Shown here: piece by piece, positions 12,001-15,000 of the stretch
Layout: each line of letters begins with the position of its first letter
How positions within the stretch are numbered: the first letter of the stretch is position 1
Origin: Candidatus Nanohalobium sp.
GTDB lineage: Archaea > Nanohalarchaeota > Nanosalinia > Nanosalinales > Nanosalinaceae
DNA: 23,432 bases
Assembly: GCA_042216335.1 (NCBI GenBank)
Contig: JBDGTY010000013.1
Span: 1-23,432, forward strand
Direction: 5' to 3'
Made by a program: the position numbers

Positions 12001-15000
12001 CCATAGAGGTGACTTCCGCTCAAAGCATAGAAAAGAGGCTCTTCGTCCTCTGCCAACTCCTCACTGGTAAATTCTCTGATCTCCTGTTTCTTCCTTTCCG
12101 AAAGTTTACTGCTCATAGAACTCTCCGCTCTTCCTCTGTTCCTGATCCTTTTGAGAACCGGGCTTGTTCGCCCGTGGCCTTCCGCTCTCTGGATCCTTCC
12201 TGAACGTGATCTCAACCTCTTCCAGGAAGTCGTTCATCGCATCCTCGATCCTCATCGGCTCGGTTGATTCTCCCTGTTTTCCGGGTTCTCCTTTGAATAC
12301 CATGCCACGGTCTGCGATGTAGTCCAGTAGGAGGAGGTCGTGGTCGATGACGAGCAGTGGTTTCTCGGTCTTCCGGGCGAAACGTTTCAGTGTCTTCCCG
12401 AGTTCGACCCTGGATTCCACATCGAGGTATGCGGATGGTTCGTCAAGAAGGTACAGGTCGGCGTCTTTGGCGAGACACATGGCGATGCCGACTCTTTGGA
12501 GCTCCCCTCCTGAAAGCTCGCTTAACTTCTGTTCGTAGAGTGGCTCCAGCGTCAAGGGTTCCGCGATCCGGGTCTCGAATTTCCGGCTATCCGGGTTCGC
12601 CACTTCTCTCACTGCTTTCTCGACTGTCTGGTCGCCGGCTTCCAGGTACTGCGGCTTGTAGCTTATGTCCATATCCAGAGATTCTCCTGTGTCTGGGTCT
12701 ATGGCGCCCGCCAGCATCTTGGCGAAAACTGTCTTTCCGAGGCCGTTCTCCCCGAAGATCGCAAGTATCTCCTCCTCGTGGATCGCGCCTTCAGCTGTCT
12801 CCAGCTTGAACTCGTCCTCTCCGAAGTCTTTAACCATCTCCTCGAACTTTGCGACCACCGGCTTGTTTTCGACCTGTGATCTCTTCGAGCGGTCGAACTT
12901 TATCTCATCTGAACGTATTCGAATGTTGTCGCTGGGCAGGTAGCCCTCCAGGTAACGGTTGACTCCCTCTTTGCTGCTTAATGCGTTGGATGCCATCCCG
13001 TAGCTTCCGGGATCGCCGAAGAAGATATTTATCCGATCCGAGATGAGGTCGAGAGTGGCCAGGTCGTGTTCTACAGCCATCACGGGATTATCCTCGGAGA
13101 GTTTCCGGATCTCTTGCCCCATGTTCAGCCTCTGCTTAACATCGAGGAAGGAGGAGGGCTCGTCGATCATGTAGATGTCGGCGTCCTTCAGGACTGTCGA
13201 GGCAATCGCCACTCTCTGGAGTTCTCCTCCGGAAAGGACGTCCACTTCCCTGTCNNNNNNNNNNNNNNNNNNNNNNNNNNNNNNNNNNNNNNNNNNNNNN
13301 NNNNNNNNNNNNNNNNNNNNNNNNNNNNNNNNNNNNNNNNNNNNNNNNNNNNNNGAAGCTGTTGTCGTGGAACTGGTGGACCTTCTCGCCCTCCTCTGCA
13401 GGTAATTGAATCATCTGGATGGCGTTATCGTATGGGTACTTGTTGATCGCCATCTTGTGAGCCTCCATCACGTCCTCCTCAGCGATGTGGAGTTCCTCGT
13501 TCTCGTCGATGTAGAAACCGCCCTCTTTTCCTGCACGATTCAAGGGGTCGTAGTTGATGACTGTTTCACGGGCCAGGTCAGGCTCGATCTTGTCCTGATC
13601 GATTACGACGACGAAGCGCTTGCTGTTTTTACCTTTCTCCATAACTGGAAGTTTACCTCAAAGAATTAAAGTTCTAGTTAAGCTTCCGGCTCCTCTTCCT
13701 CAGTTCATCCATGTCCAGATCCTCAAGCTCGGCAGAATAGTACCTGTCCCTCAGTTCTTTCAGCTCCTCTCTTCCGTACGGGAATGTCAGCCTCTTCCAC
13801 AGACCTTTCCATTCCATGTAGTTAGGTAGCTGGTCGGCGTACGTTCTGCCGGCGCGGAAAAGGTCCTGGAACGTGTCTAACTTTGTGGGCTCGATCACTT
13901 TCATATCTTTGATTTCACCTAGTGGTATCTCTCCGCTCTCAAGTTTCTCTATCGCAGAATCTTCCAGCAGTCCGATTCCTCCGAGGCCGCTGGGCAGGTG
14001 GACGTGATGGTCGTGCTCCACTATCATCTGCGCATCGTATTTTTCTGCAAGTCTTTGTACGTTGATTTCGCTGTCTGTTTCTCCACGCGCGTTCCTGTCG
14101 ATGTTGACAGGGTATGCGTACGTGTAAGGTATGAAGAGTTCTGCGGAGGATTCTTTAATCGTTTCACATACTTCTTCCAGTTCCTCCATATCCATGCCGA
14201 ATTCCCCGAGGAAGGGGTGCGCAGGATGAGCAAAAGCTGCGTCTTCAAGAACTTCTGAAAGCTCTTCCCCTTCTATGTTGTAGTACTCTTTTTCTTCGCG
14301 CAGTGGGAGGCCTACCAGAACCAGATGGCTGTCCCTCCTCCTGTAGGATGCCTCCACTCCGTTGATTATCGCTACCTTGGAATCTTCGTGCTCCATTACC
14401 AGGCTTCGCTCGTTCAGTTCGTAGCTGCCGCCCAGTTCTTCGGCTTCCTCACCAAGTTCCCTGAAGAAACCTTCTCTGTTTGTCCTGTAGTGTTCTGTCA
14501 GTACTATGACTGCCTTCTGGCCTTCCCCCAGTTTTTCCAGTATCTTCACCGGGTCGCCAAGATGGTTGATTCCTTTCCACTCCGGCTCCTCCGTCAGTTC
14601 GTTAACGTAATCTGTTGACTTCTCGGTGTGGAAGTGGTGGAGGAATAGGGTGTTCCTGGTTTCTGTGGCGTCCATGTGTGGTTTTCGGAAGCTAGTTAGA
14701 AATAAGTTTTTGGTCAGAGGCTGGTGTCAATCGCGCTTACAATCTTATTTTCTATGTCTCTGACCTCGTTCCTTGTCAGCCCCCATACGCGTGTCATGTC
14801 CTCTGTCTCTGCGTCCCAGATCCCGGCGTATCCATGGTTCTCAAGTGCCTCGTTCAAACTGCCTGTGTACTGGGAGGTCTTGCCGAGGTAGTGCTGGATC
14901 TCCTGGTTAGTTATCTTGCTGACAGGGATGTTGTTGAATGAGGAGCCTTCTCGCTCCGGCTTCTCGGTGATTATCTCATCCACTGCTCCGTAAACCTGTG

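Follow-up and report, generated by a model that had tools for sequence, protein, structure and literature searches.

The closest described relatives of the gene analyzed here are the canonical ABCE1/Rli1 proteins (P. abyssi, 3BK7; S. solfataricus, 6TMF; yeast; mammals), in which the N-domain is followed by NBD1, hinge 1, NBD2 and hinge 2. In these proteins the ATP-driven closure of the NBDs presses the N-domain on the A-site factor (aRF1 or aPelota) and the ribosome splits, after which the N-domain swings to a site between h44 and uS12 on the small subunit. We know of no redox role for the two diamagnetic [4Fe-4S] clusters of this domain and, to our knowledge, their purpose has never been settled. 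Among the standard arguments that Fe-S cluster biogenesis is indispensable to eukaryotes is the need to mature Rli1/ABCE1. The engineered ABCE1 variants crystallized without their FeS domain (3OZX from S. solfataricus, 1YQT from P. furiosus) are cluster-free twin ATPases, and Barthelme is said to have found in 2011 that without this domain ribosomes are not split. A cluster-free ABCE1 that works would run against the only experimental data. The ABC-F factors (EttA and relatives), which bind the E site in bacteria, are likewise soluble twin-NBD ribosome ATPases without a metal cluster. According to PMC13255074, ABCE1 needs both clusters to fold and to function. ABCE1 itself is given in PMC5105147 as essential in every archaeon and eukaryote examined, and PMC3442406 names the clusters of Rli1 as a main target of oxidative damage. 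No report of a cysteine-free or one-cluster ABCE1, or of ABCE1 in nanohaloarchaea, was found in the literature searched, with subscription journals and supplements outside the search; PMC6514570, in the portion available, mentions ABCE1 and nanohaloarchaea/DPANN and is silent on a cysteine-free ABCE1.

The window, i.e., the whole stretch of DNA that was analyzed, consists of 23,432 nucleotides of Candidatus Nanohalobium sp., a tiny nanohaloarchaeon of salt lakes, and includes an ABCE1 gene on the minus strand (13642..12106), the sole interruption of which is a 100-N assembly gap at 13256..13355. Upstream of the gap, 95 codons (13356..13642, minus strand) specify residues 1-95, which form a cysteine-free homologue of the two-[4Fe-4S] domain. 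The remainder (12106..13254, minus strand) consists of 382 residues (coding part 13254..12109) plus a stop codon (12108..12106) and extends from the signature motif of NBD1 through hinge 1 and NBD2 to hinge 2. The preliminary description placed only 12106-13254 inside the window. The whole span, 12106..13642, lies within it, and the remark is explained by the 100-N gap rather than by the end of the window. That the gene is broken by this gap was correct, and it is a gap of the assembly: contigs from a metagenome run extend into it from both sides, and in these loose ends (74 and 142 letters) the frame goes on as in the intact congener protein P0001 (minus strand, compared by eye). Judged against P0001, the gap removes about 118 codons (roughly residues 97-214). 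In the congener this region, which aligns to 3BK7 without a break, comprises the Walker A motif, the Q-loop and the helix-loop-helix insert of NBD1. The assembly is 96.2% complete in 74 contigs, with 3.8% unassembled.

The identity of the gene is clear from both of its pieces and from the congener. Since the gap leaves the gene not scorable as a whole, the NCBIfam RLI equivalog model NF009945 was run on P0001, which scored 715.5 bits (cut-off, 469) over model positions 4-589 of 592. As had been claimed, the congener ortholog is collinear with 3BK7 (P0001 residues 11-594, E = 2e-158), and a second ABCE1 copy was not found in the genome, where the next best match had an E value of 1.9e-9. The C-terminal piece is 94% identical to P0001 over its 382 residues and matches the Pfam family ABC_tran in two stretches (8.6e-27). 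It includes the NBD1 signature LSGGELQR, Walker B IDEPS and H-loop VEHD, followed by a complete NBD2 (Walker A GENGLGKT, signature, Walker B and H-loop IDHD), as well as hinge 1 and hinge 2 (GRPRANKPGSQKD). The ATPase motifs are invariant across 47 ABCE1 orthologues, including the NBD1 Walker A and Q-loop that here fall in the gap. The conserved hinge-2 motif G-R-P-R-A-N-K-P-G-S-Q-K-D is present, and its residues R573, R575, N577, S581, K583 and D584 are invariant (alignment A3). In S. solfataricus this motif (S580 region) anchors ABCE1 on the small subunit, as described in an excerpt of PMC7196836. ABC-F factors differ from this architecture in having neither the N-terminal wedge domain nor the ABCE1 hinge; the corresponding model NF000355 reached 175 bits, below its cut-off of 380.

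The preliminary description held that the N-terminal domain is homologous to that of ABCE1 and yet cysteine-free, and both parts of this claim stand. There is no cysteine in the 95 residues, and a phmmer search of the PDB sequences with this piece returned three matches at E ≤ 10, all of them ABCE1 (3bk7_A, 0.0029; 3j15_B, 0.006; 6tmf_d, 0.013). Cysteine makes up 0.71% of the likely coding ORFs of this genome, so its absence from 95 residues is not unusual alone; the C-terminal piece has one cysteine in 382 residues and P0001 has one in 596. The feature that goes beyond chance is the place of the segment in the alignment. The ligand columns were defined as the positions that are at least 98% cysteine in canonical proteins, in a joint alignment of 49 cysteine-free and 59 canonical N-domains. 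In these eight columns the protein has I19, A24, V28, D32, M59, H62, A65 and Y69. Seven of them, and the lack of cysteine at any, agree with the earlier reading I, A, I, D, M, H, A, Y. The third is V28 in the joint alignment and by the S. solfataricus spacing, and an isoleucine by the 3BK7 alignment, which has a spacer one residue longer; neither is a cysteine. Pfam searches gave the same picture as reported before: at E ≤ 1 the N-terminal piece matched no family, versus 17 Fer4-type families for the canonical N-domain of another genome (G050), and Fer4_RLI (PF04068) had no match in the genome at E ≤ 10 while scoring above its cut-off in 4/4 archaeal control genomes. The rarity of Fer4_RLI in the phylum also held up (2 of 70 genomes). 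With the eight cysteines, PF04068 and the Fer4 families absent, the protein is by descent and architecture an orthologue of ABCE1, and it is not an Fe-S protein.

Descent is also apparent in what has been kept. The residues shared with canonical N-domains are P21, P33, R36, P70, A74, I75, L80 and H89, and those invariant in the 49 cysteine-free sequences are D32, P33, L34, R36, G38, M59, H62 and P70. In S. solfataricus ABCE1, residues P25, R28 and S29 contact uS12 and K60 cross-links to S12, as stated in excerpts of PMC7196836 and PMC5105147. These four residues map to P33, R36, A/S37 and K68 of the cysteine-free domain, where the proline and the arginine never vary and the lysine is conserved at 92%. 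In the protein studied here the uS12-contact motif D-P-L-N-R-A-G (32-38) is kept together with K68 and P70. Thus, the uS12-contact and hinge-2 motifs are common to this orthologue and to canonical ABCE1, while the eight cysteines, any Fer4-type Pfam match and four rRNA-contact residues set the two apart: K15, N17, E19 and K59 of S. solfataricus are replaced by L23, R25, T27 and N67 (phmmer alignment). The difference from the 3OZX and 1YQT constructs is of another kind, since those lack the whole domain, whereas the present gene has retained a conserved domain that has lost only its cofactor sites.

Structure models were produced with AF2. The N-domain alone was modeled with a pLDDT of 78.9, and the full-length congener with a pLDDT of 87.6, with 82-93 per ten-residue block in its N-domain. 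The full-length model superposes on complete ABCE1 (3bk7, TM 0.88 over 599 columns; 7o80_Bz, 0.89) and less well on the FeS-less crystal forms (TMq 0.78-0.79 only, about 520 columns). This better fit to complete ABCE1 indicates that the N-domain is placed where the FeS domain sits; as AF2 is blind to cofactors and aware of ABCE1 structures, the good full-length model is no proof of a cluster-free fold. The next structural matches of the model were ABC-F factors (TMq about 0.5).

According to the preliminary description, all sampled orthologs of the family were cysteine-free. This is true of 44 of the 45 readable N-domains of the family (f1), which lack all eight ligands; the remaining one, from genome G016, keeps five cysteines. 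Three f1 loci (L030, L039, L051) were left out of this count, contig ends removing part or all of their N-domains; the ligand positions visible in L030 (2-8) and L051 (8) are not cysteine. Separately from this count, loci L216 and L217 (G181) were dropped from the analysis as not interpretable. Of the 49 other f1 genomes, 48 have no Fer4_RLI, G016 being the exception, and each of eight single-contig f1 genomes (G012, G020, G027, G030, G032, G033, G038 and G045; G027 belongs to a cultured congener) has one ABCE1 match, which is cysteine-free. Among 40 full orthologues the mean identity of the N-domain was 0.77 and its median dN/dS was 0.11; the values were 0.65 and 0.16 for NBD1 and 0.70 and 0.12 for NBD2. 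The cysteine-free state is fixed in the family, and by these measures the N-domain is better conserved than the ATPase domains and is under strong purifying selection.

The loss of the ligands could have been a sign that Fe-S biogenesis itself had been lost. This possibility was ruled out by the presence of SufB, SufD, SufS-like and SufU-like genes and of Elp3 with its CxxxCxxC motif; with these retained, the organism is not an instance of life without Fe-S clusters. SufBD is found in 47 of the 49 other f1 genomes. It is carried by both families without the cysteines, and the cysteine-keeping sister family has an IscU-type scaffold and no SufBD.

Taken as a whole, the comparisons point with good probability to an ABCE1 whose N-terminal wedge became a cofactor-free domain as the single working ribosome-recycling ATPase of this organism. 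The clusters seem dispensable here, because the only ABCE1 gene keeps the domain with all eight cysteines replaced. Six of the cysteines have given way to largely hydrophobic residues (I, A, V, M, A, Y), and those at ligand positions 4 and 6 to an invariant Asp and an invariant His. The protein core, perhaps with an Asp-His pair, would then have taken over from the clusters the task of holding the fold, so that the domain may fold without any metal. Such a protein would still split ribosomes, acting as a wedge and then docking at uS12 with neither iron nor sulfur. Exposure to oxygen or ROS, or iron economy in oxic brines, may have favored the loss, a suggestion that draws on a correlation across five families only.

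The conserved Asp and His could be read differently. Asp32, Met59 and His62, perhaps with His52 or Glu60, might bind one ion (Zn, Fe or other) that replaces one cubane as a structural staple, in which case the domain would be cluster-free and not metal-free. Metals are commonly bound by Asp, His and Met; D32, M59 and H62 are invariant in the 49 cysteine-free sequences, with H52 and E60 conserved at 90% or more, and the Asp at position 4 and His at position 6 recur in all one-cluster forms, the Woesearchaeota ones among them. However, only two or three candidate ligands stand at former ligand positions, the other six replaced positions have plain hydrophobic residues, and a hydrogen bond between Asp and His would account for the same conservation. 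On the alignment we consider a metal site unlikely and a cofactor-free core the better description. A vestigial N-domain, in a protein that is a bare twin ATPase, if active, or has a job other than splitting ribosomes, is in our opinion very unlikely. The loss of all cluster ligands and of four rRNA-contact residues agrees with decay, and the lack of ABCE1 in family f4 means that the constraint on the gene may be relaxed in the phylum; but no part of the protein is better conserved than the N-domain (identity 0.77, dN/dS 0.11), the uS12-contact motif and K68 are kept, and the hinge-2 and ATPase motifs are invariant. Moreover, this is the only ABCE1 of eight closed genomes, and the genome studied here has aRF1 and a Pelota-like gene.

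The cofactor-free reading also presupposes that a canonical, cluster-bearing ABCE1 was not missed, either in the unassembled 3.8% or as a protein supplied by a haloarchaeal host. Nanohaloarchaea live attached to haloarchaea, which possess canonical ABCE1, and a genome that is 96.2% complete in 74 contigs leaves some room for an overlooked gene. Still, the eight single-contig f1 genomes have exactly one match each, without cysteines, Fer4_RLI is missing from this genome and from all other f1 genomes except G016, and strong purifying selection on the resident copy is hard to reconcile with an imported protein. We regard a missed copy as very improbable.

Relatives within and around the phylum show partial, separate and total losses. 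The sister family f2 has a canonical ABCE1. The five cysteines of G016 are ligands 1, 2, 3 and 8 plus ligand 7, and Halorutilales ABCE1, such as that of Halorutilus salinus, keeps ligands 1, 2, 3 and 8. In the human protein C16, C21, C25 and C65, which match positions 1, 2, 3 and 8, bind one cubane (PMC13255074); having kept these cysteines, the one-cluster forms (Halorutilales, G016, some Woesearchaeota/Nanoarchaeia) can still hold one [4Fe-4S], and G016 is thus an intermediate. These proteins share with the cysteine-free one the D-P-[LI]-N-R-S-G signature as well as D at position 4 and H at position 6, which are common to all degenerate forms; they keep Cys 1, 2, 3 and 8, whereas the gene described here keeps none. 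A tree built from the ATPase part alone places Halorutilales and G016 together with f1 (support 100/99). A quick tree had hinted that G016 was nested in the cysteine-free f1, which would need several losses. A careful tree puts it in a basal polytomy, so one loss within f1 suffices. A second nanohaloarchaeal family, f5, is cysteine-free too, with different replacement residues, and by tree comparison its loss of all eight ligands is separate from that in f1 (AU p 5.7e-5). ABCE1 was found in 0 of 10 genomes of family f4. The one-cluster forms (G016, Halorutilales), the separate second loss and the family without ABCE1 are new here.

We tentatively propose, as a possible though doubtful history, a stepwise dismantling, in Nanohaloarchaeota, of a protein regarded as universal and essential among archaea and eukaryotes, from two clusters (f2) to one (G016 and the related Halorutilales copy), to none (f1 and f5, at least twice) and to no ABCE1 (f4). 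The clusters would then be replaceable scaffolding that is not obligatory for splitting the ribosome, archaeal recycling could proceed without ABCE1, and the cysteine-free form may be an oxidation-proof isoform that a few haloarchaea acquired as a second copy. A lineage with a ligand-free sole ABCE1, together with one-cluster intermediates, is a natural experiment on which residues can replace cubanes, and the cysteine-free proteins can be used for testing splitting without iron. If it works, a cluster-free ABCE1 would also make production and handling in air simpler than they are with the canonical protein. The main ABCE1 copies of haloarchaea had both full cysteine motifs in 50 of 50 cases checked, and a cysteine-free extra ABCE1 was found beside a canonical copy in 3 of 121 haloarchaeal genomes. 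One of the species carrying both forms is Halomarina halobia, which is cultured and has a closed genome, so that the two can be compared in one cell.

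The ABCE1 gene of Candidatus Nanohalobium sp. lies on the minus strand, and a run of 100 N (13256-13355) stands inside it. Its N-terminal open frame was translated from the start at 13642 up to the edge of the N-run, and a second frame of 382 residues, with two ABC_tran stretches (Pfam), extends from 13254 to a stop at 12108-12106. The genome (G000) comprises 1.02 Mb in 74 contigs and is 96.2% complete. Comparison with P0001, the intact 596-residue ABCE1 of the congener G028, indicated that about 118 codons are missing in the gap, including the Walker A, the Q-loop and the helix-loop-helix insert of NBD1. 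The gap had been named as a weakness of the preliminary description. However, 94% of sampled ABCE1 words were found in one metagenome run, and contigs of that run enter the gap from either side; their loose ends (74 and 142 letters, minus strand, read by eye) keep the reading frame as in the congener. Therefore, the gene itself is not broken, and the interruption arose in the assembly. The 382-residue piece shares 94% identity with P0001, which scores 715.5 bits against NF009945, the NCBIfam equivalog for ABCE1/RLI (cut-off 469 bits), and, as had been reported, aligns collinearly with 3BK7, the ABCE1 of P. abyssi, over residues 11-594 (E 2e-158). A second copy was not found in G000, in agreement with the claim that this is the only ABCE1 of the genome.

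The neighboring regions covered in the window were 10676-12215 and 13674-14675, both read on the minus strand. They encode a PIN-domain protein and its small, antitoxin-like partner (10676-11277), as well as an RlaP-family nucleotidyltransferase (about 11313-12116), the longest open frame of which overlaps ABCE1 at its 3′-end. Upstream of ABCE1 lies the gene of a 333-residue acidic protein without a Pfam match (13674-14675).

The 95-residue N-terminal piece contains no cysteine. Since cysteine accounts for only 0.71% of likely coding ORFs in G000, this is not remarkable alone; the point is the homology. All three matches of the piece among all PDB sequences were ABCE1, which upheld the description of a cysteine-free domain homologous to the two-[4Fe-4S] domain. 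When 49 Cys-free N-domains are aligned with 59 canonical ones (the latter mostly from Methanobacteriales), the ligand columns, defined as the eight that are at least 98% cysteine in the canonical set, are occupied by I19, A24, V28, D32, M59, H62, A65 and Y69. Replacement of all eight ligands was thus borne out, but the third residue is V28 in this alignment and not the isoleucine first listed. Residues P21, P33, R36, E56, P70, A74, I75, L80, H89, N94, F96 and L98 are conserved in both sets alike. As previously stated, no Pfam family matched the piece at E≤1, while 17 Fer4-type families matched the canonical N-domain of G050 (family f2); four matched the intermediate domain of G016. Fer4_RLI was likewise absent from G000 and present in 4/4 archaeal control genomes. 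At the level of sequence, the G000 gene was confirmed as an ABCE1 orthologue that would fail the one biochemical hallmark of its family. A literature search did not find a cluster-free ABCE1 of nanohaloarchaea in print, and we regard it as a new variant.

Among 40 full orthologues from f1, the family of this genome, conservation is highest in the N-domain, with an identity of 0.77 and a median dN/dS of 0.11, compared to 0.65 and 0.16 for NBD1 and 0.70 and 0.12 for NBD2 plus hinge. The ATPase and hinge-2 motifs are invariant. In the S. solfataricus domain, as described in excerpts of PMC7196836 and PMC5105147, P25, R28 and S29 contact uS12, and K60 cross-links to S12. The corresponding residues P33, R36, A/S37 and K68 are all kept here, whereas the rRNA contacts K15, N17, E19 and K59 are not. 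An AF2 model of the full-length congener protein, with pLDDT 87.6 overall and 82-93 in the N-domain blocks, matched complete ABCE1 structures with TM values of 0.88-0.89 over about 595 columns, but FeS-less crystal forms with 0.78-0.79 over about 520 columns. Because the similarity to the complete forms is higher, the model puts the N-domain in the position that the FeS domain occupies prior to splitting. Modeled in isolation from Cys-free sequences only, the domain adopted a beta-alpha-beta-beta-alpha-beta arrangement (pLDDT 78.9) that bears only a weak resemblance to solved ferredoxins and ABCE1.

The phylum was sampled with 70 genomes of one order, distributed in five families (f1-f5). An orthologue was detected at E≤1e-30 in 46 of the 50 f1 genomes, and 45 N-domains were readable (one from G000, 43 from full loci and one from a fragment at a contig end). 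All sampled orthologues of the family had been described as Cys-free; this held for 44 of the 45, which lack all eight ligands (40 share the identical series I, A, V, D, M, H, A, Y), but not for G016, with the series C, C, C, D, T, H, C, C. Each of the eight single-contig f1 genomes carries one ABCE1 copy, always Cys-free. In human ABCE1, according to an excerpt of PMC13255074, ligands 1, 2, 3 and 8 hold one cubane and ligands 4, 5, 6 and 7 hold the other. G016 keeps the set of one human cubane and, by this analogy, its ABCE1 can presumably still hold one cluster. All eight f5 genomes have a Cys-free ABCE1; its residues at the last cluster's positions differ from those of f1 (V, V, A ... I in the A1 alignment), but D, M and H are shared. 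A fully canonical, eight-cysteine protein occurs in f2 only, represented by G050 (L057). The G050 ABCE1 is lysine-rich, not acidic. In the MAG G025, two near-identical copies (L011 and L051) on two very short contigs, C55 and C64, probably reflect strain heterogeneity in the bin and not duplication.

In Halobacteria, ABCE1 scored above the cut-off in 121/121 genomes, and in 118 of them the best match reached 898 bits or more. Among those 118, the 30 highest- and 20 lowest-scoring copies all showed both full cysteine motifs (50/50); thus, the canonical protein is the haloarchaeal norm. Nanohaloarchaea stand out in that Cys-free ABCE1 is their only form. Three of the 121 genomes (L183 in G070, the closed chromosome of Halomarina halobia; L214 in G131; L215 in G167) have a lower-scoring, Cys-free second copy of the f5 type (476-674 bits), and so does one hypersaline MAG titled Thermoplasmatales SW_10_69_26 (L182). 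A canonical eight-cysteine ABCE1 accompanies it in G070 (L178) and the MAG (L179). The best matches beside it in G131 and G167 score 925-931 bits (931 in G131), and the G167 copy (L238) shows both full motifs. The Cys-free copy may serve as a spare that withstands oxidation, obtained from nanohaloarchaeal symbionts or passed on to them. Halorutilales (G072, G073, G099 and one MAG; L103/L181 from Halorutilus salinus, L154/L180, L218, L151) have a single ABCE1 of a one-cluster type, with only ligands 1, 2, 3 and 8 kept (4-5 cysteines). Some Woesearchaeota/Nanoarchaeia (L145, L148, L149, L153) also have one-cluster forms, in which position 4 is again Asp and position 6 again His. The N-domains of these forms bear a striking resemblance to that of G016, yet the ATPase part falls within canonical Woesearchaeota; N-domain exchange or convergence could account for them. 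A profile of the Cys-free domain had 48 matches at E≤0.001 among 1.84 billion representative proteins, only 15 of them at E≤1e-10, and ranked Cys-free and one-cluster forms first and canonical ones after. P0026, a 129-residue representative that is a fragment of an ABCE1 N-terminus, seems to have the opposite one-cluster state (ligands 4-7 kept; 1, 2, 3 and 8 lost).

For tree building, the N-domain was trimmed away and the ATPase part alone was used. G050 was sister to all other nanohaloarchaeal sequences, and f5 formed a group with the second copies of haloarchaea (87/93). The Halorutilales clade (100/100) joined f1 (100/99) with a joint support of 100/99, apart from other Halobacteria, and their ABCE1 looks like a replacement by transfer. 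The base of f1 is an unresolved polytomy that includes G016. Forcing all 49 Cys-free rows into one group, a group named after the tree had been seen, was 89 log-likelihood units worse (p-AU 5.7e-5). In the history that we propose, the cluster on ligands 4-7 would have been lost once, leaving Asp and His behind; the remaining cluster would then have been lost separately, once in f1 and once in the f5 lineage, and ABCE1 genes would have moved between nanohaloarchaea and haloarchaea.

A lack of Fe-S assembly as the cause of the cysteine loss was rejected because G000 has SufB, SufD, SufS-like and SufU-like genes, as well as Elp3 with radical-SAM cysteines. It also has many zinc-ribbon CxxC pairs. 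The SufB gene (C58, L220, 1-2217, plus strand) contains an in-frame LAGLIDADG intein, with Intein_splicing, LAGLIDADG_3 and Hint domains between the two SUFBD_core halves. SufBD, an oxygen-tolerant system, was found in 47 of the 49 other f1 genomes, 6/8 of f5, 1/10 of f4 and 0/1 of f2, where G050 (93% complete) had no match; f2 and f4 have an IscU-type scaffold instead, and f4 has radical-SAM genes. The families in which ABCE1 lost its cysteines are therefore those that have SufBD. Rli1 clusters are ROS-sensitive, as stated in an excerpt of PMC3442406. This sensitivity and the SufBD pattern, a correlation only, suggest that selection by oxygen or iron economy drove the cysteine loss.

ABCE1 was found in none of the ten f4 genomes (G052-G061), each 80-93% complete. 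The best protein match had an E value of 1.3e-14 and the best NF009945 score was 104 bits against the cut-off of 469, always from a single generic ABC domain. In contrast, aRF1 is present in 9/10 of these genomes, and Pelota-like matches also occur. Family f4 may represent archaea that lack this recycling factor, which is supposed to be universal. In three f4 genomes (G055:C3, G056:C10, G057:C5), the aRF1 match is split into two halves that are separated by about 1.5 kb and lie in a single open frame of about 940 residues, which suggests an intein-sized insert in aRF1.
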